A DNA stretch of 61,645 nt, the filler included, from Hausera hauseri (taxonomy: Eukaryota), in NCBI GenBank assembly GCA_046269625.1. It is 10 parts of 10 records of this genome, joined end to end, with 100 filler letters (N's around TTAATTAATTAA, not from the genome) between each part and the next. Parts side by side here need not be neighbours in the genome. Positions count along the whole stretch, not along the records: positions 27,482 to 32,829 come from JBJURY010273730.1; 9 more parts are not named here. One strand, written 5' to 3'. A program made the position numbers and the translations under genes. The notes beneath the pieces are model-generated. The model saw nothing but the letters and a program-made list of their open reading frames with translations, did no database searches and was not told the origin of the DNA. Position 1 is the first letter of the stretch. Each line of letters starts with the position of its first letter. This document shows, piece by piece, positions 2,795 to 51,780 of the stretch.

Positions 2795-3424
2795 ATGACA
2801 TTTAACATTTACTTTAATTTGTTTCTCATTCAGAAATGCAAGCACTATCCCATGTATTGCGTCTCTCGCATACATGAGGAGGCAGAACAGTGCCATCAAC
2901 AGATGGCGAAATATTACAAAATTGGCAAGGACACGTATGTGTGTCCGACGTGTAATATTTCAGCCCAATGTCCGTACCCCGATTTTTATGAGATGCACAA
3001 GCATCATCTCGGACCGTTTACTCGGTCTAAGAAGATGATGCTAGTGCATTGCCCTATGTACCCACGGTACTGTATAAGTACAGTGCACGACGTTGGTGGT
3101 TGTCATAGTGCAATGGAGCAATACTATGGCGCCACAACGGTACACGGTAAACGGGCCTATATTTGTCCCGGTTGTTCTATAGTTGATGATCAAATCAACT
3201 ATGAACAATTTTACAATGAGCACCAGGACCACTTAAACCAGTTTCAGCGGTGGTCGAAAAAACAAATAATAATGGAATCAACAAAAAACAGCAGCATCCC
3301 TTCAACAGGAAAAACAACAACAGCAACCAGTAAGAAACGTAAGGCATCAACAAGTCTGGACAAATACATCAGAACCAGTACCGAGCAGCAAAAAGAAAGA
3401 GAAGTACAACATCAGAATCAGTAG
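2795..3424 (+). CDS. Cys/His-rich protein with two tandem ~65-aa putative zinc-binding modules (possibly the N-terminal part of the PolB ORF)
   Basis: Internal duplication YPxYCxSxxH...CHxxMxxYY...YxCPxC...YxxFYxxHxxHLxxFxR-SKK; same strand as and immediately upstream of PolB. Confidence 0.65.
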   Translation: MTFNIYFNLFLIQKCKHYPMYCVSRIHEEAEQCHQQMAKYYKIGKDTYVCPTCNISAQCPYPDFYEMHKHHLGPFTRSKKMMLVHCPMYPRYCISTVHDVGGCHSAMEQYYGATTVHGKRAYICPGCSIVDDQINYEQFYNEHQDHLNQFQRWSKKQIIMESTKNSSIPSTGKTTTATSKKRKASTSLDKYIRTSTEQQKEREVQHQNQ

Positions 3425-3510
3425 GAGCTGCAACAGCAAGAGAAACATATAAAACAGGAACCCGACATAAATATCAAGTACGATTTGAACAGATAATACT
3501 GGACATAAAA

Positions 3511-6741: not shown

Positions 6742-6841
6742 NNNNNNNNNNNNNNNNNNNNNNNNNNNNNNNNNNNNNNNNNNNNTTAATTAATTAANNN
6801 NNNNNNNNNNNNNNNNNNNNNNNNNNNNNNNNNNNNNNNNN
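6742..6841. other. Artificial assembly spacer N44-TTAATTAATTAA-N44 (also at 16863-16962, 22243-22342, 27382-27481, 32830-32929, 40167-40266, 47604-47703, 51789-51888, 56447-56546)
   Basis: An identical 100-nt construct occurs nine times; the 12-mer gives stops in all six frames. Confidence 0.97.
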
Positions 6842-9800
6842 GTTCGTTCTTTCGTTAGATCGATCGCTCGTTACTTCATTTGTTCGATCCTATGTTCGTT
6901 CGTTCGTTCTTTCGTTCGTTGGATCGATCGACCCTTCGTTCGTCTGTTCGTTTGTTCCTTCTTTCTTTCGTTCGTTTGTTCGTTCGATCGTTCGTTCGCA
7001 CGTTTGCTCCTTCGTTCTATCGTTCATTCGTTCGTTCTTTCGTTCGATCATTCGTTCGATCGTTTGTTCGTTTGCACGTTCGATCATTCGTTCGTTCTTT
7101 CGTTCGTTCGTTCGTTCGTTCTTGCGTTCGATCGTTTTTCCTTCGTTCGTTCGTTCGTTCTTGCGTTCCTTCGATCGTCCGATCGATCGATCGTTTGTTT
7201 GTTTTTACGTCCGTTCGTTTGTTCGTTCGTTCTTTCGTTCTTTCAATCGTTCGTTGCTTCGTTCGTTCTTTCGTTCGTTCGTTCATTCGTTTGTTCGTTC
7301 GTTTGTTCGTTTGTTTATTTGTTCTTTCGTTCGTTTGTTCGTTTGATCGTTCGTTCTCACGTTTGTTCGTTCGTTCGTTCATTCATTCTTTTGTTCGTTC
7401 GTTCGATCTTTCGTTCATTCGTTCGTTTGTTCGTTCGTTCGCTCGTTCGTTCGTTCATTCGTTCGATATTTCGTTCGTTCGTTCTGTCGTTCGTTCGTTC
7501 GTTTGTTCGTTTGTTCGTTCCTTCATTCTTTCATTCGATCGTTCGTTCTTTTGTTCGGTCGATCGTTCGTTTGTTCGTTCTTTCGTTAGATCGATCGCTC
7601 GTTACTTCATTTGTTCGATCCTATGTTCGTTCGTTCGTTCTTTCGTTCGATCGATCGATCGATCTTTCGTTCGTTTTTTCGTTCGTTCGTTCATTCCTTC
7701 GCTCGTTCGATCGTTTGTTCGTTAGTTCGTTCGCTCGCTCGTTCGTTCTTGCGTTCGATCGTTTTTCCTTCGTTCGTTCGTTCGTTCTTGCGTTCCTTCG
7801 ATCGTCCGATAGATCGATCGTTCGTTCGTTTCTTCGTCCGTTCGTTTGTTCGTTCGTTCTTTCGTTCTTTCGATCGTTCGTTCGTTCGTTCGTTCCTTCG
7901 TTCGTTCGTTCTGTCGTTCGTTCGTTCTTTCGTTTGTTTGTTTGTTCGTTCCTTCATTCTTTCGTTCGATCGTTCGTTTTTTTGTTCGGTCGATCGTTCG
8001 TTTGTTCGTTCTTTCGTTAGATCGATCTCTCGTTACTTCATTGTTCGATCCTATGTTCGTTCGATCGATCTTTCGTTCGATCGATCGATCGATCTTTCGT
8101 TTGTTTTTTCGTTCGTTCGTTCATTCTTTCGCTCGTTCGATCGTTCGTTCGTTAGTTTGTTCTTTCGTTCGTTAGTTTGTTCTTTCGTTCGCTCTTGCGT
8201 TCGATCGTTTTTCCTTCGTTCGTTCGTTCGTTCTTGCGTTCCTTCGATCGTTCGATCGATCGATCGTTCGTTCGTTCTTTCGTCCTTTCGTTTGTTCGTT
8301 GGATCTTTCGTTCGTTCGATCGTTCGTTCCTTCGTTCGTTCTTTCGTTCGTTCGTTCATTCGTTTGTTCGTTCGTTTATTCGTTTGTTCATTTTTTCTTT
8401 CGTTCGTTCGTTCGATCTTTCATTCATTCGTTTGTTCTTTCGTTCGATCTTTCGTTCGTTCGTTCGTTCGTTTCTGCATTTGATCGTTTTTCCTTTGTTC
8501 GTTCGTTCGTTCTTGCGTTCCTTTGATCATTCGATCGATCATTCGTTCATTGGTTCTTTCGTCCGTTCATTCGTTCGTTCGTTCTTTCTTTCGTTTGTTC
8601 GTTCGTTCGTTCTTTCGTTCCTTCGTTCCTTCGTTTTTTCTTTCTTTCGTTCCTTTGTTCGATTTTCGTTCGGCTTCTCTTTCGTTGGTTCGTTTGTTCG
8701 TTCGTTGATTCATTTGTTCTTCCTTTCGTTCGGTCGTTCGTTTGTTCGATCGATCGATCGATCTTTCGTTTGTTTTGTCGTTCGTTCGTTCGTTTGTTCG
8801 TTTGTTCGTTCCTTCATTCTTTTGTTCGATCGTTCGTTCTTCTGTTCGGTCGATCGTTCGTTTGTGTGTTTTTTCGTTAAATCGATCGATCGTTACTTCA
8901 TTTGTTCAATCCTATGTTCGTTCGTTCGTTCTTTCGTTCGATCGATCGATCGATCTTTCGTTCGTTTTTTCTTTCGTTCTTTCATTCTTTCGCTCGTTAG
9001 ATCGTTCCTTCGTTATTTCGTTCTTTCGTTCCTTCGTTTGTTCGTTCGTTCTTTTTTCCTTTCTTTCGTTCGTTCGTTCGCTCGTTTGCTCTTTCGCTAG
9101 TTTGATCATTCTTTCGATAATTCGTTCCTTCGTTCTTTGTTTCGTTCGTTCATTCATTCGTTTGTTCGGTCGTTTTTTCGTTTTTTCGTTCGTTCTTTCG
9201 GTAGTTTGTTCATTCGATTGTTCGTTCACACGTTTGTCGTTCGATCGTTCTTTCATTCGTTCGATCGTTTGTTCGTTCGTTCGTTCCTTCATTCGTTCCT
9301 TTGTTCGTTCGCTCGTTCTTTCGTCCGTTCGTTCCTTCGTTTTTTCTTTCGTTCTTTCGTTCTTTCGTTCGTTCGATCGATCGACCGTTCTTTCGTTTGT
9401 TCGTTCGTTCTATCTTTCGTTCGTTCTTTCGTTCATTCGTACGTTCCTTCGTTTGTTCGTTCGTTCGCTCGTTTGTTTGTTCTCTTTATCGTTCATTCGT
9501 TCGTTCTTTCGTTCTTTCGTTCGATCGCTCGTTTGTTCGATCGTTCTTTCGTTCGTTTGTTCGTTTGATCGTCCGTTCGCACGTTTTTTCGTTCGTTCGT
9601 TCGTTCTTTCGTTTGATCATTCGTTCGTTCGTTCGTTCGTTCTTTCTTTCATTCGTTCGTTTCTTCGTTAGATCGTTCTTTCTTTCGATTGTTCGTTCGC
9701 TCCTTCGTTCATTCATTCGTTCTTTCGTTTGTTCGTTAGATCGATCTTTCGTTCGATTGTTCGTTCGCTCATTCGTTCATTCGTTCGTTCGTTCGTTCGT

Positions 9801-26712: not shown

Positions 26713-27381
26713 CGGGGTTGGGCATAATTACAGTAACCGGAGTGTAAGGTCGTTTCTAACAGTTTTGTGCTTATGTCCACCTGTTTTCTAGCTTTCTGGT
26801 TTTTTATAACTACAATTATTTCTAAGGTTATTTAATTAATGACTTAATATTTTTAGATATAGCTAGGAATTATGTTCCTCGAGATTCGATCATCGTCCTC
26901 TACTGGAAGGGAATTTCACAAAATAAGATTTCACAGCAATTGCTTGTTGGGAAATGGCTTATTTTGAAAACATTTATTCACTGTAAAGAACTTTGGACAA
27001 GTCTGGATCGTTTGGAACGTGGTAGAAAAGTAACGTCAACAACTTTGATCAACATTAAAAAGTGCGTGACAAACTCTTATATCAGGCTTCGCGTTCTGAA
27101 AACAAAATTGCAGCAGATGTTAATTCCATTGGANNNNNNNNNNAAGTTTAAAATGAAAACTTATAAGTGTTCTTTACAAAAAGAAACGAGAAAACTTCTC
27201 GAAGCCCTTGACGCATTGTTTCAGCGGTATTGATTATCGTTATGTCTTATTCACCGATGAAAAGATTTATACCATCGAGCAATTCGTAAAGAATCAAAAC
27301 AATCATGTTTATGCTAAGTCTCAGCAAAACGACAAAGTTTCGCACATTGGATATCCTAAATCGGTAATGGTTTTTGCTGTT
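26713..27381 (+). mobile_element. Tc1/mariner superfamily transposon 5' part (maT/DD37D-like), decayed
   Basis: TA-CGGGGTTGGGCATAA terminus-like sequence; HTH-like region and VLFTDEKIYTIEQ..NQNNHVYA...PKSVMVFA; truncated by spacer. Confidence 0.75.
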
Positions 27382-27481
27382 NNNNNNNNNNNNNNNNNNN
27401 NNNNNNNNNNNNNNNNNNNNNNNNNTTAATTAATTAANNNNNNNNNNNNNNNNNNNNNNNNNNNNNNNNNNNNNNNNNNNN

Positions 27482-30400
27482 TGATGTATGTATTCCAGTA
27501 GACGAAAACATTCCGCCTAGAATCGAAATGATAATGTTTGCACAGATTCGTCAAGACAAAGATCTACCAGTATATTTTGAACCTCAAAAGAATATCGATC
27601 CAAACCTCATGTTTAGCAATATCCTATGCAGTGTAGCAACGGGACGCGTACCTATTAGATTAATGAACAATGCACCAACTCACGTGAGATTGCACGATAA
27701 CACTACTCTGAGTCACAATTGCAGAGTATCGGCAATAATAATAGAAGAAAAACCGTACAAGTCTCAGAATTCTCACCTCACGTCAAAACCAAATTTTCTC
27801 CTGAAGCGTATTGCAAATTTTACGAATTACTATGTAAATACCTCGTAATAATCGCACAAAATGAGGAAGACATAGGTAGGGCAAAAGCCCTGAGATTAAC
27901 AATTCCATTAAGGAAGAAACCTGGTTCTTACGATGAAATCGATCTAGAAGAACAGAAAATGCCCAAATGGTACCCACCTCCTCATTCACTAAGACTAGAG
28001 ATAACTAAAGAAGTAAAACGAATGTTAAAGGCCGATATAATTCGATTAAACTACCGATCATGGTGCTCACTTATACTTATGGTTAAAAACAAAGGAACCA
28101 CGAAACATTGATTTTGTATAGATTATCGGGCAGTAAAAACGCTTATGATGAAGGACTCGTTTCCCCTACCTTCGGTAAAGGAAGCTTTGGTCAGACTATC
28201 GGGAGCAAAATGGTTTACCACTATTGACTCACAATCAAGATACTGGCAAGTGGAAATCGAAGAAGATCGATATAAGACAACGTTTAAAACACATGATGGC
28301 GTGTACGAATTTAATGTTATGCCTTTTGGTATTACCACAGGCCCAGATATTTTTACCAGAATGATGAATAAAATGCTTATGGGATTTGATTATGCATTCG
28401 TGTGCTTAGACAACGTGTTGATATCATCAAAAACGGAAGAAGAGCATTTGAAGGACATTGAAGATACGCTCATGCGACTGGAACAAGCAGGGCTCAAATT
28501 GAATTCCAAGAAATGTAAATGGGCACAAAATGTAGTATCATACCTTAAACATATAGTAGGAGAAGGAGGATCAAGACCGGATAAATCTCTATTAAATAAA
28601 ATATCTGATTGTATAAAACTGCAGAATCAAAAAGAGTTAAGACACTGGTTAGGCCTATATGGGTATTATGCAACTTACGTACCAGATAATTCGAAAATTA
28701 ACGCACCACTATATCGCCTACTTAAAAAAGGAACTAAGTGGAGATGGACAGAAGTGGAGCAAAAAGCATTCAATGAAATGAAGAAAATTTTGAAAAACAA
28801 ACCAGTTCTAAGATACCCTGACTTTAACCGCCATTTATCATTAAAACAGATGTAAGTAAAGAAGGTATAGAATATGAATTATCTCAGAAACGAGAAGATG
28901 AAGAACTAAAACACCCAATAGCCTATGGAGGACACTCGTTAAAGAAAGCAGAAAAGAATCATTCGGTTACCGAATTAGGAACGTTAGCCGGAAAGGAAGC
29001 ACTACGACACTTTAATGCATATGTCTATAAACAAAAGATTATAATAGTGACCGACCACAAAGCAGTTACGACATTGAAAGGACGAGCTAATAACCCAACA
29101 TGTAGATTAAACTGTTGGATCGAGGAAATTTCATGATATAATATTGAATTCCAATACATTCCAGGTAGCAAACATGTCGAAGCCAACGCACTATCAAGGC
29201 TAAAGACAAAAACGAGTGCAATCACCACAGTAAAAAAGCCGCAACTCGAACAACTGGTTGAACGACAACGAACTCTAATAATGAACAAGACGACTAGAAT
29301 TACAACCGGGCAAGCTAAAGATAAGGTTACTCAGCAAATTGTTGAGTTCGCACAAAACGGCAAAGTACCCAAAGGACGACAACTGAAGAAGCACCTTCAA
29401 AAACACGGACATAAATATTACGCATCAAACCAAGATAACATTTTGTAATACGAACAGAAAGGAAGAAGATTAATAGTTATTCTAAAAGGATTACGCACCG
29501 AAGTACTCATGGCTGAACATGACTTGTATTTAGCTGGACACATGTCTTGGAAGAAGACATTGGAAAGAATATTGAATAAATACTACGGGCCAAGAATTTT
29601 TATCGATGTAAAGAATTGGGTAGCTACGTGCGAAGTTTGCGCGACAAAACAAAAGAAAACGAAAGGCTACGTAGCAGAATTAAAACCCATAAACGTAGCA
29701 GATAGGCGCATGCAAGCCATGTCTATAAATATAGTAGGACTTTTACCTAAAACTCACAAAAATAACAGATATATTTTAACATGCGTGGATTGATTGACGC
29801 ATTTTGTCGAACTGGTGGCACTATTGGATCAAAAGCGGAAACTTTAGCCGACGCAATAGTAAGAAAAATCACCTGCAGATATAGACCACCAGAACAAATC
29901 TTAACAGATAGAGGAAAAAACTTCACAAGCGAATTATTCGAAAAAATTACTAAAATATTTGAAATCGAGCGTTTAACCACCACCGCGTACCACCACAATG
30001 TAATGGAATGGTTGAACAAATGAACGCAACGGTCATTCGAATACTATCAACAGTAGTGGGCAAAGACCAAAAAGATTGGGACGAATTCCTAGAAGGAACC
30101 CAGTTCGCGATTAATACAACTCCACATCTAGCAACAGGATTCACACCGTTCTTTATGATATATGGACGATAGGCAATCTTACCCACGGACCTAGGCGTGA
30201 CACCGTACGAAAAGAACCTCGAGGATCTCGAGCAAAATTTTGCCGAAATCTTACAGACAAGACTGCAAAAGTGTTGAGAAGTTGCAAAAACATTGTCACT
30301 CGAATACCAGGAACAAATTAAAAAACAATATAATAAAAAGACTAAGCCCTATGATCTGGAAAAGGGAAATTGGGTTTATATACATTACCCAGACGAAAAA

Positions 30401-30560
30401 AAGTACATCGTTGAAATTAACCCGTACAGGAAGAGGACCATATAAAATCATCCGCACAATGCCGATCACGGTCTATGTTAACAAAAACGGAAAAGAGGAA
30501 GTCGTATCAATCCAGAGTAGTTAAAACAGATATAAGGCCAGCTAAACACTACAAGCTAAG
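27482..30560 (+). pseudogene. pol: Gypsy pol (RT, RNase H, integrase), disrupted
   Basis: FCIDYR, DSFPLP, YWQV, YEFNVMPFGI, VCLDNV (degenerate YLDD), PVLRYPDF, TDHKA, H..AGH....CEVC, EQILTDRGKNF, TTAYH, GPY motif. Confidence 0.95.
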
Positions 30561-31936
30561 ACCACAAGAAAACAAGACTTCATCGATTGTTACCAGACCA
30601 GTATCTTACACACAGATAATAGTAGCCTTATCGTTGATTACTGTACTAACGCCTAAGTCTAATGCCCAATGGTGGGTAGATGAAACTTCGTTGAACGATA
30701 TATATGGAATCAGAAAAAGCGGATTGAAACCTTCACCGCCAAAGGAGAAAACTTCCAGACATAAATCAGAACAAAAAGACGAAAAATTCCTGCAAGCGAT
30801 AAAACTAGATTATTTTTCACCAGAGGCCCCATGTGCCTGGTTTAGGTTACCAGGACCATATGAGGGGTAAGTCCAGATACTATTCCATGACCTGTTAAGC
30901 CAAGCTGAGTTTGATTGTAAATTTAAGCCAGAAGACGATACGATTTGTTGCAACGTAGAGTACGGGCACTCTTACGCTCTCATTTATCGTTCGTATCTGC
31001 CGAACTGTAATGCAATGTACGCCGAAATAAACCTGAATTCACACTTAGTTATATCACAAACTTATGGAGACTACCTTACTATAGAGCTAGAAGACATGCT
31101 CCAGTCCATCAACCCATTAAAACGGATACTAGAAGAAAACGTAGCAAGTATAACAGAAAACCCAAAGGACAACTGTGTCCAAATAAAATAAAAGGACAAT
31201 TAATTAAGGGACGAGTAATCACGGTTCAATTCATAAGAGAGGACAAAGCAGCTCATGACCAACTGTGCTGTCAAATCGACGCCAAGAGACCAAATAAGTG
31301 TTGTAGGTTACCTAGGAGATATAAATATAAGATTCGATTTGACCTATATGATGTCCGACCAAACCAGCCAAGTATTTACCTATGAGGTTATCAATTGGAA
31401 AATTCAGTTCGAGAATTCCACCGGAAATGACGACAAGCAGAATTACGACTACAAGAAGGAGTATGACTACTTTAACTTCCACAAGAACCCTCCAAACAAG
31501 TGGATTACCTAAAAAGGATCTAGAAATGATCCCTATAAATTATTGGACACAACAACGCGAAATAACAATCGTTGTGTAAGAAGCACTTAATTACGACGTA
31601 AAAATAAGCTGCCGAACAGTACATAATAATCAGAAAGTAACACTGGCTAAGTGTAGCCATCGAGGCAAATGTACCTACTTAAAACCTAAAACGGATTACG
31701 TAATACAAGTGGGTGCAGAGAACAAACAAAGTAAAATAATTACGGTACGAACTTTAAACGAGATTGTCTTAACGAAACCACTGACTAATGAGGAAACGAA
31801 AGACGAAACTACGACTACCGATAAAATGAAACATTTAACTAAATGGACAACTTCGTCATTAATATCTATTCTTGGAACGTCAATATTTGCTCTCATAATT
31901 TTTATCGCGTTTTGTCGATTGATTACCAAAGGGTGA
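30475..31936 (+). pseudogene. env-position ORF3: signal peptide, three FN3-like Cys-containing repeats, Thr-rich stalks, transmembrane helix
   Basis: Hydrophobic YTQIIVALSLITVLTPKSNA (30607-30666); repeats CCNVEYGHSYALIY, CCRLPRRYKYKIRF, KCTYLKPKTDYVIQVGAEN; TM SSLISILGTSIFALIIFIAFC. Reconstruction needs two frameshifts and read-through of stops. Confidence 0.65.
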
Positions 31937-32073
31937 TGGTACCGCAGAGTGAAATCAATAATGGAGTAACCTGACAATTACAGGTTGGGTTATTTCACCA
32001 TCTAACAAAGAATTGGTTCAAATTTAGAACAATACTTTGTTATAGGATTGGCCCTTATTTTTTATTTGTCAGA

Positions 32074-32690
32074 ATGGTAAGCGTAGATAGCCGAATTAGC
32101 ATCGACAAATATTTGCGAGAACAAGCCACAGTATTCATTCCGAAATCGAAGTGTATCTACAGGAGGATAACCGACGCATTACAAGCAAAGACTTATCGAA
32201 ATTTTAAAAACTAACGAAATTCTAATTATCTAAAGGGTATTACAGCGGAAAATCGTGCAGTCTTCCTTTACGCAATGCGTGAGGACAATCAGGCCAAAGC
32301 ATATTCCCTAAGAAAATTAATCCGAAACCGACCAGCCAAAATTCAGGATGTATACATCCACCTAGCTGATGGAGAAATGTATTATAAGATAGAAAATCAA
32401 GCATGAAACTCCAATACGGGGCATTAATATCGGTTCAGCACATCTAAAATAAGTGGAGAAGGCCTAGAACGTATTAACTATGGCCTCGAATTCAGAGTAG
32501 CAGCCCTTCCTGTCAAACCTATGTTCAAAGTGACCTACAAAGAGAACTGCAATCTAGGCTTGCCAGTTCTACAGTTTGAACAAACTCCAACCGAGGTAGA
32601 ATAGGACGAACATCGTCAGTCATATAGGCTAGTCCAAGATGGTCGCAACATAAGAATTATAGCAGTAGGGAGAATATGGGAATTGGGGCA
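32074..32690 (+). pseudogene. ORF4, decayed ~200-aa accessory ORF of the Gypsy element
   Basis: ATG at 32074 directly after TTTTTTATTTGTCAG; frame continues through isolated stops (MVSVDSRISIDKYLREQ...AVFLYAMRED...DVYIHLADGEMYYKI... /...GLERINYGLEFRVAALPVKP...). Confidence 0.5.
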
Positions 32691-32829
32691 CAGACCCCGT
32701 GGGGGGGTTAATCAATAAATCGATATTGCACATGTGCCGATCAATAGTGCACCCGGAGCACTATCGATCCATAAAGTGCCTGGCAACGGTGCCGTTAGGC
32801 ACCGTTGCTAAGGGCACTTTTGCACATTT
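32675..32829 (+). repeat. 3' LTR start (truncated by spacer)
   Basis: Follows the purine tract; 32695-32829 aligns by eye with 60536-60671, both ending GGCACTTTTGCACATTT. Confidence 0.7.
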
Positions 32830-34098: not shown

Positions 34099-34176
34099 AA
34101 CAAACAACAACCTTGATCGTAACACTACAATAGGATCACACTGCAAGTGCGTATGCCTTCAAAAATATTTACATAC

Positions 34177-37100
34177 CTTGTAGTACACAATCTGTATCAA
34201 CTGATCCTGTCTCTAGAAAGAAATCATATGATCTGTTTGTCATTTCTACGGATTCCAAATAACCTTGCGCTGTAATATTCGAACTTTCACATTCAATACT
34301 GCTTGATGACTCGGACCAACAATCAACTTTTCGTGTTTCCCCTGGAATTTCATCGATAAGATTTGACTGGATCACACACATATCATATGAGTCTTGTTTG
34401 GTGATCAAAGATTTATGACGTTGTTCCGGCGAGATGTATATATATTTTGAAACGTCACTCAAGTTGGATTCAGCACAAGTCTTACTGTTGAGGGTACAAT
34501 TATCGTTGGGAGAAAACCCAACTCTCGTTAACTCACATTTGGAAGGGTCTGCTTCAGATTGTTTAGCAACGAATGATGGGTTGCATATTGATGGTCTGTA
34601 GTTGTCAAATGGTATATCTAAACTACTACCATGGACCGATTTTGAACGAAATGACTTGTCTAAAACTTTGTTGTTGTGTTGTGTCAACACGCATGGCACG
34701 TCCAAAGATACTTTTTCATCGACGTCATGATCCTGTCCAATTCTACAATAATTCCCATATGAATGATCATTCTTCCCATTGGGTGATAATGTTTGGATAG
34801 TATGCGCATTATACACCCCTGTACCGATTGTGCTTTCCAGATATTTACAAGTCACATCTCCATTAGTCAATGATGCTGTTACATTTCTATATCGAATGGA
34901 GTTCTTTGGTATAAATGACGATTGAATTTTGTTGATTGTCGTTTTGATTTTGTTCCAGTCGATATCCTGACATGCTGTACAAGGACATTTGGCGTATATC
35001 TGCTTTGATTTTGTTGGAATCCAGTTATCTGAACTTGTATTATTTCCCTTATCATTTGTGGAAGGCAAAGGGCTATCAATTTGTATTGCAAAATCGCTGT
35101 GCGTTGTTGTTTGGTAGTTCCTTTCAAATTTCGTTGATCCGGTGCAAAATGATGAAATGGCACTGTTTATAAGTTGTAGAGTTAGTGTGTGCAACGATGG
35201 ATTTTCATTGGAACTCAGCGCAAAATCGAACAGAGAATCTCTATACCTTAAATCGCCTTCTTGGGTTATTTTACTGATTATCGATATGTCTGAGCTAACA
35301 TTCGACGAAATAGAATTCCGCTCACTATCATCATCAACCACTTCGTTAATCGTTTGAAGTTTAGACGAATTGACAGATGTACCTACGGTTGTGCTAGTTT
35401 TCATTGATGTCGAACAGAATGCTACGTTTCTACTAGTTATCAAACCCCCACTGACATCTGCATAGGACTGAGATGGGAATTTTATCGTACCACACAATGA
35501 ACAATTACTCTGATCTTTCAACGTCTCCAGCAAAGCACTAAGTTTCAGTTTTTCCACTTCTGACAATTCATCCGATACTTGACTGTTCATATCATTTACA
35601 ATTTGATCTTTTTCGAAATTATTCCTCATTGGATCTTCACTGTGAAACACAGCCGTTTTATAGAAAAAACATCTTTTATTAACTTCATCTAAAATCGACC
35701 CTTCTGATTTTGACTTTCTTATAATCCAAGATAGACTCATACAGTTGGAATTCTTAGTAACTGAAGGTTCTGGTTCTTTATCTTCTACTTCATAGTTTGT
35801 TAAAGTACCTGAAATCCTTTCAAACGAAGGTTTCAAATTGGGTGCATCACTAATGACAGAATCCGATTTTAATACCATATCATCATAGATGTTACTTACT
35901 TCCATTACGTATTCGGTAACTGGCTTCTGGCTGTGAAATCTCAACGACATATCGCTGGGATCTTCCATTTTCTCTGTCTCTTCGAGGTAGACTGATTTCA
36001 CCGCAATCTCAGCCGGACTGCGTTTTGTTTTATCTATTTCAATACTCAATGAGTAAATTCCAACATGGGCATTTGGATTTGGACTAGACATGGATCGATT
36101 GGTATGGATGGTTAAAACGTCATCAGCCACCTTTTCAGATTCACTCATCATATTGTCATCAAAGTCGTCTTTTTCAATAAATGGCGTGAGGGATTTTTCA
36201 GATAGTCGATCCAAAGTCGATGCGATCAAAATGCTTTCGTTTAGATCTTTTTCCGATTGCGGAACGTTTATATCTCTGACGTGACTTATCGTGACTAGGT
36301 CCGATGTCTCGCTTGGTATGTTGGTTAGAACCCTTTGGTCGGCTACCAAATGACTCTGTGTAGCTTTTGATGATTTCCTGCTTTGTTTATTTTGGTCGAA
36401 TTCCCTTTCATTACCTTTTATTGTACTGCTTGAATATTTCTCCACGATTGTGCTGGTTTGCGTATGGTCGGGTTCAGTGCTGACTTGTGGTGATAAATTG
36501 ACGCCAGTTAACGTAACAAGCAACATCTGGTCATTCTCGTTTTGTTCGTTCGGAATATTCGATAGAACTATTTGGTCTGATGCCAAGTGGCTCTGTGTGG
36601 CTATTGATGAACTTTTGCTTTGCTTATTTCGGTCTGATCTTCTTACACTTGAATATCTGTCTGAATGTCTACTAGTTCGCGCAGGATCCGGTCCAACACT
36701 GACCTGTGATAAATTAATGCCCGATACTTTAATGTGCACCGCATCTTCATTATCATTTTGTTCATTTGGAATGCTTGATTGAACTTTTTGGTTAGCTACC
36801 ACATGAATCTGTGTCGATGATGACTTCCTGCTTTGACTACTTTTACCTTTACCCTTTATTACTACACTTGATTGTCTCATGGAATTTTTGCTCATTCTTG
36901 AATGATCTAACTCAGCGCTGCCTTGTGGTAATACATTAACACCGGATAATTTATCAAACAACTCCTGGTCGTTCTCATTTTCCTCGTTTGGAACATTCGA
37001 TTGAACTAAATGAATCAGGGTCGCTTTTGATGATTTCTTGCTTTGTTTATTTTGAACTGATTCTCTTTCATGACCTTTCATCGTGCTTCTTGAACGCTTC

Positions 37101-40100
37101 TCTGACAGTTTACTAGTTCTCTCATGATCGGATTCTGCAGTAGCTTGAGGAGATATATTTATGCCGGACAATGTTTGATCATTTTCATTTTGTTCACTTG
37201 GAATATTCGAAAGTATCCTTGGCTGCACTACCAAATGACTCTGTTTCGCTTTTGATGATTTCCTACTCTTTTTATGTTGATCTGATCCTCTTCTGGAACT
37301 ACTTGAGTATCTCTCCGAAATTTTACTTGTTCGCGAATCATCTGGATCACTGCTGGTTTGTGGTGATGAACCCATACCAGATAATGTTACAACTAACGAA
37401 TGGTCGCTTTCCGTTCGGTCGTTTGGAAGACTCGATTGAACCCTTACGTTCGCTACGAAATGAATCTGTGTTGACTTCGATGATTTCCTTATTGATTTAC
37501 TTTGATCTGATTCTCTTTCAGTATCTTTTGCAGTGATACTTGAATATTTATCCACGTTACTCATTCGTGTTTCATCTGGTTCAATGCTAACGAGTTGTGG
37601 TGATACGTCAGTTCCGGAATACGTTATAACTAACGTCTGATCGGTTTCATTTGGTTCGATTACAATATTCGATAAAGCTCTCGGGGTATCTATCAAATGA
37701 ATCTGAGTCTCTTTGGACGATTTCCTTGATTGTCTTCCTTCATCTGATTCTCTTTCATCATCTCTATTTGTGCTATTTGAATGTTTCGTCGAAACTTTAC
37801 TTGTTCGCCTTTCATCTGGATCAGCGCTGCCTTGTGGTGACAGGTGAATACCAGATAGCGTAATTTGTAACATCTGGTCGTGTTCACTTGGTTTGTATTG
37901 ACTTTCATCTTCCGGAGTATTTGCCATGTTAGGCTTTATTTCATCTCTATTTGTGTTACTTGAATGTTTCGTCGAAACTTTACTTATTCGCCTTTCATCT
38001 GGATCAGCGCTGCCTTGTGGTGACAAGTGAATACCAGATAGCGTAATTTGTAACATCTGGTCGTGTTCACTTGGTTTGTATTGACTTTCGTCTTCCGGAG
38101 TATTTGCCATGTTAGGCTTTACTTCTGTTTTGATTTCCGAAAAGTTTTGATATGTAGAGCTACTGTGAGTTTCTGTAGTCTCTTTTACTTCACTGTGCTT
38201 AGATGTACTGGTTTCCATATCTCTCGGGAAAATGCTCACTGCTTCATTGTTCGGGTCTGTTTCATCTTGTTGACTAACGTGTTCTTCCACTTGGCTAAGG
38301 ATAACAGAGTAATTAACTTTATCATCATTAACTTCAATTATTTCCATAGAATCCTTTTCATTTCTAACTAATACATTAACTACATAATCTGATGATTCTT
38401 TACAGCTTTGTGGATCTTGATTAATAACGGTATCTTCGGAAATAACAATGACCGACAAACCTGAATCTTTTGTTGACTTCAATTCACTGAAGGCCTTCTT
38501 ATCACTTACCTTTAACTTTGCAGTTGTCTTCATTTGCGATTGTGGTGATGGTGATTCTGGACATTTTCTATCACAATTTGTTGTCTGTGGTTGCGGCTGT
38601 GGACATTTCTTCTCACAATTTGCTTTTTGTGGTTGCGGCTGTGAACATTTCTCATTATTTATTTGTTGTTGTTGTAATCGTGGTTGTGGACATTTCTTCT
38701 CACAATTTGAAGATTGTGGTTGTGGACATTTTCTCTCACAATTTGTTGGTTGTTGAGGTTGTGGTTGTGGACATTTCTTCTCACAATTTGAAGGTTGTGG
38801 TTGCGGACATTTTTTCTCGCAATTTTTGGCCGTGTCCTCGGTTTTTAAAGAAATCTCGAGAACCTTCTTAAATGGAAATTCATCCGGTTCTCCATCGTTG
38901 CTATTCGCACTTTGCCAGTCAGAATCGCTAGATTCATTCATATTTTTGTCTCGGGCATCTTTGTTATCTCCCACATTTATGGCAACTGAACTATACGATT
39001 CACTGGGTTCAGATATTTGTTTTGATTTTCGTTCACCTTGTATTGACGGACTCGATATTTCTTTTGGGAAAATGGAAAATTGCAATTTCTTTGTTTCGAA
39101 GTTTTCATAAACGACAAAATTTGGGCCTAACTTGCCATTATTAACATCTTCCTCTTCCGATTTGTCGTTGGTTTCGTTTTCGTCACCGTTCATTGTTACG
39201 TCAGTGACTTCACTTTGATTTTCGGCATTTTCAAAGTGTACTGAATGCGGTGTTTCGATGGGAACGAGAGATAGTTCATTCTTCGAAATGCGCAACGTAT
39301 GACTGGAACGATGAACTAAAATGCTTTCAATTGGTTTATGTACTCTGGTGTTGCCATCGGGCCCAAAAACCGAATCAGTTGGGTCGTTGAGCGAGTCGGT
39401 TCTTGGAAAGATTGCCGTACCGCTGTTAGCCGGTGTTGTGTTATTAGCTACATTTCTCACTTTATCGTTGATTTCAATCACAGAATATGTTGAATTTTCA
39501 GTTCGGTTTGATGGTAGATTGTCCAGGAACTTCGATTGAGATGTTGATGTTTTATCATTTCGATTGGATGCTAAAATCTCATTCATACGAGTATGTTGTG
39601 GGTTCCGTTTTATTTGGTTTCCGATAATGGTTTTGTCTATTTCGGTATCCGTGAAATAGCAAGACATGTCGTCGAGGTCTAGATTATCGGTACAGTCCGC
39701 AGCATTGTTTGATGAAACATTATGGTTCTTGATTTGAAATCGACATTCGGTTGTATCACTGAATACAGAAAGAGACAAATCGACGTCTCCACTATTGACA
39801 TGTTCTCTTTCAGTGTCGGATTCGATTTCAGAAAATTGTTCAATCGATTCACTATGATTATTACAGACGTCAGTATTATCCGACTCCATCCACGACGATG
39901 ATGATTTCTGTTCGTTTTTCTTCAACTTCTTCTTGTATGTCATTGCGTGAACTTGGAACACTTCTGAATATTGTCTATGGCTGTCATTGTCTGATATGGA
40001 ATTATTCATCCCATTGACTTGGAGTGACCAATTTTTGTTATCATCGCATCTCGAATTGGTTGTAAGTAACAGTTCGTCATCCATGGGATCTTGAACTTTC

Positions 40101-40109
40101 TGCGAGTAC
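34177..40109 (-). CDS. Giant (5933 nt) internal coding exon of a repetitive Ser/Glu/Lys/Asn-rich protein (ORF 34169-40084, 1971 aa)
   Basis: Uninterrupted frame; acceptor TTTTATTTTCAATGGTTTAG ending at 40110 and donor AAG|GTATGT at 34177/34176 bracket the ORF. Confidence 0.85.
36300..38121 (-). repeat. Coding tandem repeats: near-identical 183-nt (61-aa) duplication at ~37756-38121 and several degenerate ~75-80-aa units
   Basis: KPNMANTPEDESQYKPSEHDQMLQITLSGIHLSPQGSADPDERR occurs twice; recurring SKxTQxHLV...SNIPxE.NE.DQ...LSG.N.SPQ. Confidence 0.85.
38540..38830 (-). repeat. Coding repeat (N)CEKKCPQPQ, about 7 copies
   Basis: Direct from the translation of the 1971-aa ORF. Confidence 0.9.
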
Positions 40110-40266
40110 CTAAACCATTGAAAATAAAATGTAAATAAAGCAACGATTATGCAATCTGAAATAGAGNNNNNNNNNNNNNNNNNNNNNNNNNNNNNNNNNN
40201 NNNNNNNNNNTTAATTAATTAANNNNNNNNNNNNNNNNNNNNNNNNNNNNNNNNNNNNNNNNNNNN

Positions 40267-41569: not shown

Positions 41570-44263
41570 ACATAGTGCGTCAGTTTCATCCATAGGTACC
41601 GCGTAGAGTTGTCCTTATAGATCGTAGATGGCCCTAGTGGTATCTGACGTTGTGAATTAGCCAGGTCAACTAACAGTTTGCCGCCTTGATTATTCATCTG
41701 AATATCTCGAGAAGGCGAGAAAGCGTGTTGATCTCCTTCAACATAATTTAGTTTATGAATAACTTTATAATATCTTCTTCTAACTGTGCAGGTATTTGAG
41801 ACGATTTTCGACCAATCTTTGTGTGAAGTAGATTTGAAATTTTCTCTTGGTTTACGTTCAAGTTGAGCAACAATAGGATTACCAGGATTTGGGCGACCTA
41901 TAGTTTTCAAAAGTAAATCTGAGTCCTAGGAGTCTAAGCGAATCACAGTGACCTTGTTTCACAATTTACTCAGAGTTCATGTCCATTTGACCATCAACTG
42001 AATCACCAAGCGTTACCGAAGATCCTTTGTGATTAAGATTTAAATACATAAGCCAGGTTTCCTCAAACATGTCGATTAATCCATCCAATATTATTTAGAA
42101 TAGTTTGTGCAATGAGAAGATCGTCACGATTCAATTTTGACAAACAGTTCAGTTCCAACTCTTCGCGGTTTATTACACAATGCATGTGTTTATTCGCTGT
42201 TGTTCCAATCTTTTACATACTTTGGATTTCTTGTATATGTAATAGAATAAGGCAATCGAGCAACAGTTATGACAGCTGATCTTAACTATTTCTGAAGTTT
42301 CGTCATTGAGCAACCATCAGATGAGAAATGAAATTTGAAAATTTGTATGATTTGTGATATAACGTGTATAGTAATGGCTGCTTCTTTCATGGGAATGTTG
42401 TTTGCAAGTTGGCAAGATTTTTCATAACTTCAAATGCCAGATGAAAGTTACCAAAGCAGAATATTATTAAAGTTAATAATTCTTCAATAAGAATCCTAGA
42501 ACACGTTTCATTAGATAAAATAACAATAGAAGAAAGACGTTCTATTAGTTTGATAATATTGTAACCAACGTCTATTGACACCGGTAATGAAACTGTCAAT
42601 TGGCAACCAAGACTAAGGTAGTCATTTAAACCACTTATCACACCAATCAAAGTACCTAAATTGAGGTTACGAAAATCATTGTTCGTAAGAGATATGTTCA
42701 TTTCATTTAGCTTCCTTTCAACTTCTTGAAATAGACGTTTTCCCCCAGACGAAAAATGAGATCAATTTGAACTCCTTCTGGAACGAACCCACCACCATAT
42801 CTCAAGAATCCCAAACGTATGCACTCCTGTATAAATCTTGGAGGTAAATTCATCAGCCCTTTAGTTTCATCTATATTTGAATTAGAAACTAAATCAGTTT
42901 TTGATCGAGCTTCAGCGGAAGATATCGTAATTCCAAAAATATCTTCCACATCTTTGCTACTGCCACCGTAAAGTAAACGTGGGCAGAGCCTAACGTCTTA
43001 ATCATGATTCTGGAAAGAATTCTGGAGGGTGATATCTGACGAACATGAACTCTGAGATGTTAGGGGATCTATCATGTTACTTGCAATTGATTTATTTTCT
43101 TCAACAAGATTTTTGCCTTTATACTTCACAATTATGAACCTACTTGGTAAGATATGATGCAATTTCAAACTGGCCACTATTTCGTCAACTTCACCATCAG
43201 AATGGGATTTGCTCCTGCAATTTCCCAGGTAATTCAACCTACTGCGAATAACCGACTCGATATTGATGGTAGTAATTAGTGACATTTTGTTCGTGTCAAA
43301 CTTTTCATTGACGAAAATACGGACAATATCAATAGAACAGTCCAAATGTAGATTTTCTAAAATATACAGCCACTTCATGAATACTTTCTGACTGCTAATT
43401 ATTTCGGCAGAATATATGAAAGACATTGATAGAAATCTATCGCTAAGTTCCATTTCCTGAAAAATTATCCTAAGAATATTTGCAACTTCACTGTTATCAT
43501 GAAGAGAAACAATGAGCAGAAAATTATTTTCAACAACTTGAGACAGCGGTTTTGTAACTCATATTGTCTGCTTTTAATACAAACCGACTCTTCTGAATAA
43601 GAACATTTTTGCAAAGCTTTGAGTACATTGCAGGCGATATACAATCATTCGAAATATCCATGGTGTCCAGAGAGTACGCAAATTTTAATTCAATCCACAT
43701 TATAATTGCAATATGACTTTGGCTCACAGATTCGGATGTAATCTGCAGAGCCCAATTATATGAATTAAGTACAGTTGTAAAATTTTCAAAAACTCGATTG
43801 AAAAATTCATTTCTTCCCGACACGGTGTCATCAATTTCAACCAAAATACATTTGTAATCTCTAAGATAATCAAATTTATTAATTGTCACAACTTTTAGGC
43901 AGTGGAATGATATTTAAGTGAAAGAAACAATTCCAATACGTATCCAATACGATTTTGAATTGTTTTTGTTCGATAGGGATCAGCATGATTCTTCAAAAAT
44001 TCCGTTGAATCAAAGTGACACGGTTTTTTTAAACGATTCATAAAAGCCACTTGATACTCGTTCATAGCAAAATCCGCTTGAATTTTACGATTATCATTGT
44101 TGTCATTCTTCTGACACCATTGTAGTTTCGGTGTTAAGTAAGAACTTGTAAAAATTTCCATTACTGCAAATCGTAGAAAAACAACTGAACAAAAAATACC
44201 GTTTATTTCAAAATTTCTAAAATAAATTCTATTATCTTTTTGCTGTATTAAACTTTGCTGCAA
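41570..44263 (-). pseudogene. Disrupted gene, tentatively a highly divergent pecanex-like C-terminal region
   Basis: Tiled minus-strand ORFs with weak colinear similarity to remembered pecanex motifs: NDCISPAMYSKLCKN, CFGNFHL, LLIAQ.....GW...V.GN, VTVIRLD, LLVDLANSQRQIPLG. Confidence 0.4.
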
Positions 44264-44935
44264 AATTAATTAGAACAAATTAAAGTATAAATATAACAAA
44301 GTTAAATATCATCAAAAGTTGTCTCAATATTTAAACATTCTACATTTTTTATAAAAGGTTGTAAGCAGAGGGTAAAACTCTGAAATCGCTATGTTCTTTC
44401 TGTTTAAATTTTAAATTCAAGGTAAACAAATTAGAAAAATGAGAATTCCAAATAGATCCAGTGAATTCGGATTGGGGTCATGTTTCAGGATACACAACGT
44501 CCAATTTGAAAATACAAGTAATCGTTGACTCTTTTTGGAATCGTTGCAGATCGTTGACTCAACATTCTGTGTAACTACAGATCGACGGGATCAGTGCCGG
44601 CAGTGAACGGCAGTGGGTTATCGACTGCAGATTATCGGGCATTTATTGAATGGTTGACCCATTTGAGGCTAGGAAAAGTCTCGTAATACTATTTGCCGTT
44701 TCGAACTAAGATGTCGTGAAGCTGGTATGGGAATGTAACCGGCGTTAGTTAGAGTAACTTCTGTTATTAGTCCAATCATGCTCTGATTGTCAGATGGCGT
44801 ACTTTGTAACGATATCGGAAAGTATGTAATAGAAAATTCGTACATATCTGGTTTGTTGTGCGTGAATATGCAATCTTCGTTTACATCAACGTTTTTTGGC
44901 ATCTTTCGGATACCCCGCACGTAAATCGACTACAC

Positions 44936-45649: not shown

Positions 45650-47346
45650 AGGTTTGACGTTGGTGATATGCACCGAAAGTTCCTTACCGTTTGTAGAAAT
45701 AATGGCGTTGTGGGAGTGTAATTGGGCAAATTTGTAAGGCCCAAAATACCGTGGTTAAAAATCGCACGGCGTTTGATTTTTTAGGCAAGCGAATTTTGCC
45801 CAATACAAGTCTTCAGGTAAATATGTTTTGTCTTTGTGAAGTAACATGTAGAACGAATCTTTACTGATCGTAACAAAGTAATTTTGCGCTGCCCGTATCG
45901 TTTCATCTGTAGGAGTGTCGTCTAGGGCAGCAAGTTCGAATAATGACAGTACAGGAGCGCCGAATAAGGCTTCAGTGGGTGAACAGCCGTTAGAAGTAGA
46001 TGGAGTGTTCCTCCAGCCAAGCAGAACAAACGGAAGAAGATTCGTCCAACTAGTGTTTGACTCTGCAAGGATTCTTAGTGATGTTTTCAATGTTTGGTGG
46101 TAACGTTCTAAAAGGCCATTTGATTGGAGGTGATAAGGCGTAGTATGTATGTGCTGGATCCTCAGTCGGTTAACAAGAAATTTGAACAGGTTGGATTCAA
46201 ACTGTGGACCCTGGTCCGTGATGATGAAACGAGTTGATCCAAACCTACTAATCCATGTACGAATGAAAACGTCAGCTACGGTGTCGGTATTTGTGCTCCG
46301 TAGAGGGGTAATTTCTGGCCATCGCGAGGAATGGTCCATAATGGTGAGAATAAATTGATGACCGTTGTCCAGAAGAAGAGGGCCGACGATGTCAATATGC
46401 ACAGATTCAAAACGCGATGTGCATGGAAAGTAAAATAGGGGTGGCTTTAAATGTTTAGTTGTTTTGTATTTTTGGCAGGCAACACACTCCTTAACTCCGG
46501 TTTGCACATCGGAACGCTTTGACGGCCAAATTACTTGTCGGAGGAGTAAACGAAAAGTGGTTTTAGAGCCAGAGTTGTGTAGCGAATGTACACTGTTAAA
46601 CGCTTGCCATTGTAAAGATGGTGAGAGAATTATTACGGAATGACCTGGTTTGGAAGTGTCTAAAGCCACGCCGTCAACAATTGTGCAAGACTTAAAAGAA
46701 TTAAGCATGTCGTGAGGTGGTTGGTTCTGTTGGAGTTGTATTTGAGTGAAGATTGGTGAAAAATTAATCGAACCAACTGTCCTAGATAAGAAATCCGTAA
46801 CTAAATTATTGACACCGTTAATATGTTTTATGTCGAAGTTAAATGTTGACAGATATGATATCTGTCGTTTTTGGCGTGAGGAAGGATGTTTCATAGCCAT
46901 GATATTTAGCAAGGGTTTGTGATCGGTCTGTGTGATAAAACGGCGAGCGACAAGTAGGTGGGAGAAATGCTTTAAAGCGAGTACGATAGCAAATAATTCT
47001 CGATCGAACGTTGGATATCTAGTTTCAGGGATGTTAACTTACGAGAGAAAAATTCTAGCGGTTGATTGTCTCCTTTGTGTATTTGGTAAATCACAGCACT
47101 TACCGAGATGGTTGAAGTGTCTGTAGTAAGGATCAGTTCCGCATCAGACCTGGGGAAGGCGAGAATGTCGACGGTCTTCATTCCATTGCGTAGCTTATCA
47201 AACTTATCAACCAGGTCAGGTGTCCACTGAATTGGATGATGTTTTTTGCCGCCACTTAAGTGAGCAAATGGTGCGGTAAGTTCAGAGCAGTACGGTATAT
47301 ATTTGTGAACGAAGTGCAAAGTTCCCAATGTTGGCAGCGGGGGCAT
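45650..47346 (-). pseudogene. pol: Gypsy pol fragment (RT thumb, RNase H, integrase)
   Basis: LILTTDTS, PLEFFSRKL, TDHKPL, H...CVAC, VHIDIVGPL, ITDQGPQFES, TTPYHLQSNGLLER, GPY. Confidence 0.93.
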
Positions 47347-48207
47347 CCACGCCGTCCACCTCGTCGCCCAGCTAAGGTAGAATTGGAAAATCCATGTCCC
47401 CTGGTCTGTCCGCTGAATCAGAATTTGATTATTTGTAATTGCTCATCGAAAAGTAACAATAATTGTTGAAAATTTTTATTGAAATCCAAATTATTTATTT
47501 TGGAACAAATTTTCCAAATTCATATTAGATTTTTAATATTACATTTTCAAATTAAAGTTTTAATTTAAATTTAAAAATGTTTCTAATTTAAATTCAGAAT
47601 TTCNNNNNNNNNNNNNNNNNNNNNNNNNNNNNNNNNNNNNNNNNNNNTTAATTAATTAANNNNNNNNNNNNNNNNNNNNNNNNNNNNNNNNNNNNNNNNN
47701 NNNGGTCATTTTATCTGATCTATACGAAGCTGAATATGACAAAAAATTTTGCTTTGTTTTAATTTTCGTGATGTTAAAGTTTGGTGGTTACGCGTTTTAA
47801 AAAAAGGACATGGATTGAAAACTGTATATTATTTTGAATTTTGAAAAGGGACGATAATTGAATTTTTTGAATTTGAAAAACAATAAAATATTGCTGACTA
47901 TTCCAATTGAATTTTAGTTCGTTTGCATACAAAGTATCGAATGGATTTATTGCTGAAGACGCGAGACCACAAAGTTCCTTTTTACCACCAGTCCGATCAC
48001 TTGTTTCAGGGAACCTTTTGTAAGCGCCCGTACTGGCCTGGGTGAATGGTGTGTTGTATGAGGAATCCGTATTATGCGTGTAGAGTAAAAATTTAAGAAA
48101 ACCCAATCTCACAGACCGATCAGCTAGATAATGTTTATGAACAAGACTCACTAAAGGCATCGAGATGCTCCTCGGACAGGTCGGGCGATGTATTAAACAG
48201 ATGAACA

Positions 48208-50174
<1,967 letters not shown>

Positions 50175-50499
50175 ATGGTAACAATTTCCAATTTAAAGGA
50201 TTTCACGAAAGCTCCGTAGCTTTTCCTATAGCAAAAGTCTGGATTGAACGATAATCACATCCCATTTTCAAGAGTACTGGAATAAAACCACCCGTTATAA
50301 GAAAAAATCGGATTTTTACTTTCCGAATGGTAAAAAAATGTTACACCACAGGCACTAATTCTCATTCTTTTATGGATTAATTTTAGGGCCAAGGTTTTTG
50401 GTTTCTTTCTTTAACTCTGATTATTTTAGCCCTGAAGCTATTGAGGACAGCTATGACATACGGCGAATTCGCTTCATTGTCCGTGTATTCATGATCAGT

Positions 50500-51069: not shown

Positions 51070-51780
51070 GAAATTGGGATAAACGTCATCATATATTTCT
51101 CTCGATTTCCCTTCTCTATGTGTCAAATTCCAAGCTCCAGGGTTAGCTTTCAGCCGATAATTTTCCAAAATGGTCATAACCATAGTGTCGTGAGTAGTTA
51201 TTTAGCATCACTACCAGTAAGAACGAACTGAAGACCTCTAGGAGGTTGACCGGTAGTAAGATCAATAAAGTGACCTTCTAATAGAAGATATTCTAATTCA
51301 TATTGGGCGTGTGCAACACCATCTTTAATATCGTCGAATTTAAGATTGTCAAGATCAAAGACTGACTTAACAGGCTCAACCAGCCAGTTATGAATCGGTT
51401 CGAGACCCTAAGTTAATAATAATTGACCAAGAATCTGCGAAAATATTGCTTTAGGATTTGAAATTGATACTGGAGGATCGAGAACGAGTCGGTAGAAGCT
51501 TTTCAGTGGTTGCTCAGGTAGTTTGTCTTTACAGTTAAAAAGCACCCGGACATTCAAGTTAAGTGCATCTTTCGACACAAGCATAATATGCAACATCTTC
51601 TGTGCTGTTCGACTCAAAGGATCAATTATGGCAACGAGATCGAACGCCCGTTTTGACAAATGACCCATTAGAGAAAATGGTGTATACACTTCTTTTAAAT
51701 CAGTTATGTTAATTTTTACTTGTTGACATAACACCAATTTGAGCAGAGTTGCTCGATTTTGCTAAATCCATCCTTAACGT
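51070..51780 (-). pseudogene. UGGT: UDP-glucose:glycoprotein glucosyltransferase internal fragment
   Basis: FDLVAIIDPLSRTAQK, PLKSFYRLVL, WLVEPVKSVFDLDN, YELEYLLLEGH, TTGQPPRGLQF, LKANPGAW; contains stops. Confidence 0.9.

Follow-up and report, generated by a model that had tools for sequence, protein, structure and literature searches.

A decayed Ty3/Gypsy retrotransposon with a predicted triple-FN3 membrane protein in the env position

Env-bearing Ty3/Gypsy elements (errantiviruses) carry a signal peptide-ectodomain-transmembrane (TM) gene behind pol, and the main text of a survey that used a bait-based search reports its product as F-type and gB-type Env only, with zero occurrences of the word "fibronectin" (PMC13524379). 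Other genes can occupy the same slot. In the bdelloid rotifer elements Juno and Vesta, captured third reading frames (ORF3s) encode GDSL or DEDDy enzymes or small Cys-rich TM proteins of 210-230 aa, each as a separate ORF; the accessible text of that report describes no FN3-type ORF3 and again contains "fibronectin" zero times (PMC5408684). Atlas virus, of the Belpaoviridae, is a BEL/Pao element that produces a Gag-Pol-Env polyprotein with a full class II fusogen, domain III of its Gc protein having FN3 topology (PMC9094657), and env-free elements of the MDG1 group carry sORF2, a short, FAST-like and fusogen-like membrane protein for cell-to-cell transfer (PMC11952523).

The locus analyzed here resembles each of these systems in part. 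As in errantiviruses, a Ty3/Gypsy pol is followed by a signal peptide, ectodomain and TM gene, but the ectodomain is predicted to consist of three FN3 domains and lacks a furin motif. Juno and Vesta provide a precedent for captured genes in the env slot, whereas the protein found here is neither an enzyme nor a small TM protein. With Atlas virus it shares FN3 topology and, putatively, a single polyprotein with Pol; unlike Atlas virus, it combines a Gypsy pol with three predicted tandem FN3 domains and shows no class II domains I and II in its low-confidence model. Like sORF2 it is a candidate membrane protein for cell-to-cell transfer in an env-free element, yet it is about 470 aa long with a large folded ectodomain. 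Our main reading, to which we assign a probability of roughly 45%, is that the locus represents one decayed member of a multicopy Ty3/Gypsy family, with an integrase tail that runs into a predicted triple-FN3 single-pass protein, likely captured from a host and likely used for attachment and not for fusion. That this protein, ORF3, is an element-borne FN3 membrane protein is a narrower claim, which we make with considerable confidence. "Env-like" is used below for position and topology only.

The window (the whole stretch of 61,645 nucleotides that was analyzed) is a chain of contigs separated by runs of N, most of them with a TTAATTAATTAA spacer, and neighbors across a gap may not be adjacent in the genome. 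The entire feature lies on one 5.35-kb contig (27482-32829) with a gap at either end. Its parts are given below, together with their matches to the nearest pol relatives (the protein P0001 and the metagenome contig L001) and to two homologs of ORF3 (P0121 and P0122).

27492..27845 (+): pol linker between protease and reverse transcriptase (RT); 25% identity to L001 residues 138-219, pairwise E 2e-5
28112..28852 (+): RT, decayed; Pfam RVT_1, E 4e-23
28828..29133 (+): RNase H; Pfam RT_RNaseH, E 5.5e-23
29449..30403 (+): integrase zinc-binding domain and core, interrupted by stops and frame changes; Integrase_H2C2, E 2.5e-16, and rve, E 1.3e-5
30435..30564 (+): integrase tail with GPY (30435-30443), a frame break at about 30510-30520 and HYKLRP (30547-30564); matches GPY...Y-N-[FL]-R-P of P0001 and L001
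30607..30666 (+): signal-peptide-like segment sharing the frame of HYKLRP; hydropathy of 3.05 over 11 residues
30799..31029 (+): FN3-like domain 1, which has a Trp in strand B, Cys and a Tyr corner, and a stop at 30868; collinear with P0122
31141..31390 (+): FN3-like domain 2 with a frame break near 31188; 44% identity to P0122
31424..31489 (+): Thr/Ser-rich stalk 1, from sequence; Thr-rich also in P0121 and P0122
31538..31750 (+): FN3-like domain 3 (L-x-P-x-T-x-Y type motif) with a stop at 31577; assigned from the P0121 model
31793..31819 (+): Thr-rich stalk 2, from sequence
31859..31936 (+): TM helix (31859-31915; mean hydropathy 2.64 over 19 residues) and short remaining tail
31930..32715 (+): decayed reading frame with no assigned family; 6 stops in 263 codons versus 21 and 16 in the other frames
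32717..32829 (+): beginning of a MITE-like repeat, distinct from the element, whose 3' end it masks; 77% identity to 60560-60671

Pfam matches on this contig follow the order RT, RNase H, integrase, GPY, which is the Ty3/Gypsy order, and the integrase comprises a zinc-binding domain, a core and a GPY/F tail, as in other members of this group. The linker has no Pfam family and, judged by eye, sits in a dUTPase-like position; the contig begins inside it, past the protease. The pol region is heavily decayed, with stops at 28109, 29134, 29446, 29791, 30170 and 30275 and with frame changes, and P0001 matches the integrase region in three frames (tblastn). Because the frame of GPY differs from that of HYKLRP in this copy, an additional break must lie near 30510-30520.

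P0001 is the best of 120 listed RT matches (46% identity), and L001, a 7.6-kb contig, is 77% identical to it. In a tree of RT plus RNase H (44 rows: 43 of the 110 full-length rows and the window), the window element groups with P0001 and L001 at an SH-aLRT of 95, on a long branch, and an RT-only FastTree of 121 rows supports this grouping with 0.71. Both relatives share the GPY...Y-N-[FL]-R-P tail with the window element, and in both the pol frame stays open into a signal-ectodomain-TM-tail arrangement: after GPY...YNFRPR, P0001 reads on in frame through a signal-like segment and a short ectodomain rich in Cys to a TM helix and a tail, and L001 has the same layout in one ORF of 1,591 codons. 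A GPY-type motif was found in 64 of the 120 listed pol matches, and a strongly hydrophobic stretch after it in one, P0001; we also viewed 25 of the tails. The ectodomain of P0001 and L001 is short and unrelated to ORF3, and L001 differs further in carrying an additional protease-like domain and an independent ORF of 505 aa. The same layout with another ectodomain suggests a slot at the end of Pol whose contents can be swapped.

The region 1-6528 of L001 encodes, in the long ORF, a protease, RT, RNase H, integrase, a second aspartic-protease-like domain, the signal-like segment, the Cys-rich ectodomain, TM helix and tail; the downstream 505-aa ORF shows DEDDy-exonuclease-like motifs by eye and has no Pfam match. 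Eight other Gypsy pols (P0040, P0047, P0048, P0056, P0057, P0072, P0081 and P0113) have in-frame tails of 280-450 residues past the integrase, in which C2H2-like zinc-finger motifs can be recognized by eye.

The original prediction had placed a signal-like segment, three repeats, Thr-rich stalks, a TM helix and stops at 30868 and 31577 directly behind the integrase, and the motif check recovered all of them, and every other motif coordinate of the ORF3 region, at the positions given. HYKLRP and the signal-like segment lie, as proposed, in a single stop-free frame (ORF 30421-30870), and the window sequence has no in-frame ATG between them. The two frameshifts that had been suspected near 31190 and 31390 were located by tblastn with P0122, whose matches run through frames 1, 3 and 2, near 31188 and 31385-31410. 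ORF3 contains no introns here, and its base composition is not separable from that of pol or of a host ORF. Hydropathy and conservation indicate a signal peptide, an ectodomain and a C-terminal TM helix after the integrase; the signal peptide is predicted on these two grounds, the segment being kept in P0122 through ...A-QW.

The three repeats had been recognized by the tyrosine corner of FN3 domains (CCNVEYGHSYALIY at 30946-30987, CCRLPRRYKYKIRF at 31299-31340 and KCTYLKPKTDY...ITVRT at 31667-31753). These motifs are indeed present, and in all three domains of both the window copy and P0122 the corner is accompanied by a hydrophobic residue in the E-F loop. The bare pattern is weak evidence for FN3: it occurs 12 times in the six frames of the contig, and three of these 12 matches are the repeats. 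Repeats 1 and 2 are clearly alike in sequence (z 4.2 in the window, z 9.8 in P0122), repeat 3 shows a marginal likeness to repeat 2 in P0122 (z 2.9), and there is no significant likeness between repeats 3 and 1 in the window or P0122, nor between profiles of domains 1/2 and domain 3 (hhalign probability 0.7%). The kinship of repeat 3 to the other two therefore rests on its predicted fold.

The C-terminal piece of ORF3, searched with phmmer against 1.84 billion representatives (E<=0.001), had two matches, P0121 (189 aa, 48%) and P0122 (479 aa, 34%), both single-member ENA records. P0122 is an unbroken natural homolog that stays open over 479 codons, with an ectodomain of about 400 aa, well outside the short-protein range of sORF2/FAST-like proteins. 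It is collinear with three pieces of the window over residues 10-445 (33%, 44% and 31% identity; combined E 2e-50), the match taking in the signal peptide, the Cys, Trp and Tyr positions and the TM helix, so that the type-I membrane layout proposed for the window copy is kept in an intact protein. The basic tail expected after the TM helix is found in the homologs, where both P0121 and P0122 end in a basic stretch followed by Y-x-R-I-T; in the window copy only CRLITKG precedes the stop at 31934, about 25 residues short of the homolog ends, and neither the basic tail nor Y-x-R-I-T can be aligned. Tyr-based motifs in such tails sort viral envelope proteins.

Further relatives were sought widely. 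Two word-based protein searches returned no relative of the N-terminal half of ORF3 among 448 candidates of longer proteins and only P0122 itself, one of 2,444, respectively. Scans for the ORF3 locus found nothing in metagenome, viral or prokaryote genome contigs, an RT scan of viral contigs found nothing, P0122 had no tblastn match in phages, and the protein searches found no host donor gene.

The fold was modeled on the homologs. AlphaFold2 on P0122 with a four-row alignment (mean pLDDT 47.8, pTM 0.26; domains 1-2 at pLDDT 53-77) gave a TM helix and three all-beta domains, each with seven strands (77-154, 191-274 and 328-397), the strands following the A-B-C-C'-E-F-G order of an FN3 sandwich. 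Foldseek matched this model to 341 PDB entries at E<=1e-3, with fibronectin FN3 10-12 the best (E 1.3e-10), and the top rows listed are proteins with tandem FN3 domains. In VIA comparisons, domain 1 matched a monobody (Z 7.3, rmsd 3.0, 84 residues aligned) and domain 2 the IL-20 receptor (Z 7.3, rmsd 2.8, 87 aligned), scores below 8 that may reflect merely a common arrangement, and domain 3 reached Z 8.4 (rmsd 2.8, 77 aligned). Domain 3 of the P0121 model is the most confidently predicted (pLDDT 81-90); it matched fibronectin and Tie2 FN3 domains at Z 9.4 (rmsd 2.2-2.5), 41 chains reached Z>=8, and its Foldseek rows are FN3 throughout (best E 2.7e-4). We regard the FN3 fold as well supported by these models for domain 3 and as moderately supported for domains 1 and 2, in line with the original prediction.

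At the sequence level, Pfam fn3 (PF00041) is no more than suggestive: it scored 15.7 bits in the window (E 0.018) and 13 bits in P0121, below the gathering cut-off of 25, and gave no row for P0122; sequence searches of the PDB found no FN3 match, and the FN3 membrane proteins returned by the ESM Atlas at 0.85-0.88 are leads only (<0.9). ORF3 shares with animal FN3 surface proteins (fibronectin 10-14, gp130 D4-6, Tie2, Dscam, ROBO1, FNDC5/9/10) the seven-strand sandwich and the Tyr corner, and with the receptors among them the single-pass layout. It differs from them in its compact, Cys-rich domains and in sequence, with 6-20% identity in structural alignments and no sequence-level match. On the strength of the modeled fold, it was likely taken from a host receptor or adhesion gene. 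The original prediction of an env-like or host-captured module thus holds for position and topology, whereas capture is deduced from the fold, with no donor gene found.

Some structural matches would also fit a protein that acts on its host. ORF3 could be element-borne and FN3-folded and yet be a receptor decoy or mimic (of cytokine or growth-factor type), which would change signaling or immunity in element-expressing cells or block rival elements. Gp130, IL-5R alpha, IL-12R beta1, IFNAR2 and IL-20R are among the matches, Cys pairs, a trait of cytokine-receptor FN3 domains, occur in domains 1 and 2, and proteins with FN3 repeats are known from large DNA viruses (Lymphocystis disease virus 2 and Tetraselmis virus 1 in the viral structure library). 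We nevertheless think such a role unlikely, though by no means far-fetched: fibronectin, tenascin and Dscam score at least as well as the receptors, the WSxWS motif of class I cytokine receptors is absent from P0121 and P0122, and the tail has merely some 25 residues.

The models likewise bear on fusion. In place of an F or gB ectodomain they show three FN3 sandwiches, the full P0122 model being of low confidence. No named fusogen occurs in the PDB match lists or among the best 50 rows of the viral structure library (about one quarter of them unnamed), as the original prediction had anticipated, such match lists being ones from which a fusogen family can be missing; the library rows include proteins with FN3/Ig repeats from phages and from large DNA viruses (best E 2.6e-6). 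Neither the window pieces nor P0122 contain a furin motif (R-x-[KR]-R) or a further strongly hydrophobic segment that could serve as a fusion peptide, and for this reason ORF3 is unlikely to be a fusogen, judging from its sequence. The furin motif is typical of F Env and is not always kept in gB. A true fusogen that escapes recognition, for example a reduced class II protein, would agree with the env position, the type-I topology and the FN3 topology of class II domain III (PMC9094657). It would, however, have to do without domains I and II, of which none is seen in the P0122 model (confidence between domains is low) and for which the three predicted FN3 domains and low-confidence linkers, filling most of the ectodomain, leave no room; together with the missing furin motif and fusion peptide, this makes it a very improbable explanation.

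We return to attachment by an element-borne FN3 protein, for which the coupling of ORF3 to pol is central. The original prediction had proposed a Pol-ORF3 polyprotein. The uninterrupted stretch from HYKLRP into the signal segment and the analogous layout of P0001 and L001 support this indirectly. P0122, on the other hand, has its own Met directly before the signal peptide, and some members of the family may therefore have ORF3 as a separate or spliced gene; like P0121, P0122 is only putatively linked to a pol.

Copies of the element in X1, one run that contains the stretch (share 0.29; possibly related to the window's source and not independent of it), speak to the same question. No RNA run was listed among those containing the stretch, which has no bearing on expression. 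At 80% likeness, 20,628 X1 contigs aligned across all 30 bins. The ORF3 pieces among them are about 80-85% alike, with diverged copies showing 53 differences over 30671-31012, 57 over 31080-31381 and 59 over 31528-31842, next to one near-identical piece. Among the variants listed, 35 contigs read differently at the stop at 30868, and length variants at 30510-30513 (rows of 4, 7 and 10 contigs), 31187 (7) and 31407-31412 (2 and 3) fall close to the frame breaks of the window copy; these breaks therefore look private to it. Two single contigs link the integrase side to the ORF3 side through a different linker, one joining 30509 to 30603 (78 letters on the shorter side) and the other 30517 to 30667 (40 letters), so the adjacency of integrase and ORF3 recurs, each contig spanning only part of the element. 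Summed depth, a measure that cannot rank parts of the element, is lower over ORF3 than over pol; ORF3 could diverge faster, or many copies could lack it. The sequences support a multicopy family and, with stops and frame breaks in both pol and ORF3, a disabled window copy, as had been proposed.

These observations weigh against an origin of the locus as a chimera, in which an element inserted beside a gene of an expanded host surface-antigen family, or was misassembled with it. The Met of P0122, a gene call for it that includes no pol, and the fragmented assembly would all fit such an origin. Set against them, ORF3 is intronless here, continues the frame of the integrase tail with no in-frame ATG after HYKLRP and is as decayed as the adjoining pol, X1 contigs of other copies cover the junction or link its two sides, and the sister elements P0001 and L001 have the same layout, so that we consider a chimera improbable. 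ORF3 might instead be a captured host retrocopy that the element carries as a passenger, without a role for it, as the dead window copy and the frequent occurrence of extra ORFs of varied origin in LTR elements (PMC5408684) would allow. This, too, we find hard to credit, given that three versions at 33-48% identity keep the signal, Cys residues, Tyr corners, stalks and TM helix and that P0122 is open over its whole length, a pattern of conservation that points to purifying selection.

If ORF3 is a functional element-borne attachment protein, working copies may use it as follows. Pol and ORF3 would be read as one polyprotein, the internal signal would direct ORF3 into the ER, and signal peptidase would free it at S-N-A/QW in the window copy and T-Q-A/QW in P0122, leaving a signal remnant that could tether Pol to the membrane until the element protease trims it. 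At the cell surface, the FN3 arm might bind a partner on neighboring cells, and the Tyr motif might sort the protein to the site where capsids gather. ORF3 would thus hold element-bearing cells or vesicles against target cells instead of fusing them, which could favor hand-over from soma to germline or from cell to cell via host uptake routes. On its own, attachment that has no fusogen to follow it does not account for entry.

The feature, predicted FN3 cargo in the known env slot, is real at the level of the family and apparently undescribed: among the papers listed in searches of the open literature, none reports an FN3 ORF in an LTR element. The bait-based env search of PMC13524379 would likely miss an FN3-type ORF3, which represents a class that such searches would pass over. 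An env-slot gene with a host-type FN3 fold, if the models are right, would show that Ty3/Gypsy elements also recruit receptor or adhesion modules, and it may serve as a model for an attachment-before-fusion stage in the origin of enveloped retroelements. More tentatively, and with real doubt, we suggest an undescribed Gypsy clade with a modular slot at the end of Pol (internal signal, swappable ectodomain, TM) that takes up host-type surface modules, here a triple FN3 arm, for fusogen-free attachment and transfer between cells, as a third class of "env" made from a host adhesion protein and not from a viral fusogen.

Downstream of ORF3, the frame at 31930..32715 is spanned over 32089-32533 by a diverged X1 copy and has no Pfam match at cut-off; it is probably part of the element and possibly its fourth gene. 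Neither the LTRs nor gag or protease can be seen, because the contig ends at gaps on both sides and another repeat covers the 3' end. We rejected a G-run near 32700 as a candidate polypurine tract ahead of an LTR, as the sequence downstream of it matches the MITE-like repeat. This repeat (60520-60928 and, in part, 32717-32829) has 16-bp terminal inverted repeats and strong internal hairpins; the matching stretch at 60560-60671 lies within the inverted ends of the former copy, and the summed depth over the latter in X1 is very high.

Several other features occur in the window. The region 3343-6067 (+) encodes a decayed protein-primed type-B DNA polymerase (Pfam DNA_pol_B_2, E 1.4e-5), which we take to be Polinton- or adintovirus-like, and an array of about 10 kb at ~6800-16860 consists of a degenerate, T-rich unit spaced at 8 and 12 bases. 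Remnants of Tc1/mariner-type transposases lie at 59530-60027 (DDE_3, E 9.4e-11) and, recognized by eye, at 26826-27429, and a second, unrelated decayed Gypsy pol with RNase H and integrase at 45755-47442 (-). Very diverged host gene fragments resemble huntingtin (42387-44269, -; E 1.3e-4, below the Pfam cut-off) and the DPP IV family (49425-50192, -; E 8.4e-19), and a UGGT-like stretch at 51408-51761 (-) was recognized by eye only. The huntingtin-like and DPP IV fragments, the Tc1-like remnants and a low GC content hint at an invertebrate animal as the host. An uninterrupted, Ser-rich frame of about 2,000 codons at 34169-40210 (-), which has no Pfam family, contains NCEKKCPQPQ repeats and longer internal repeats.
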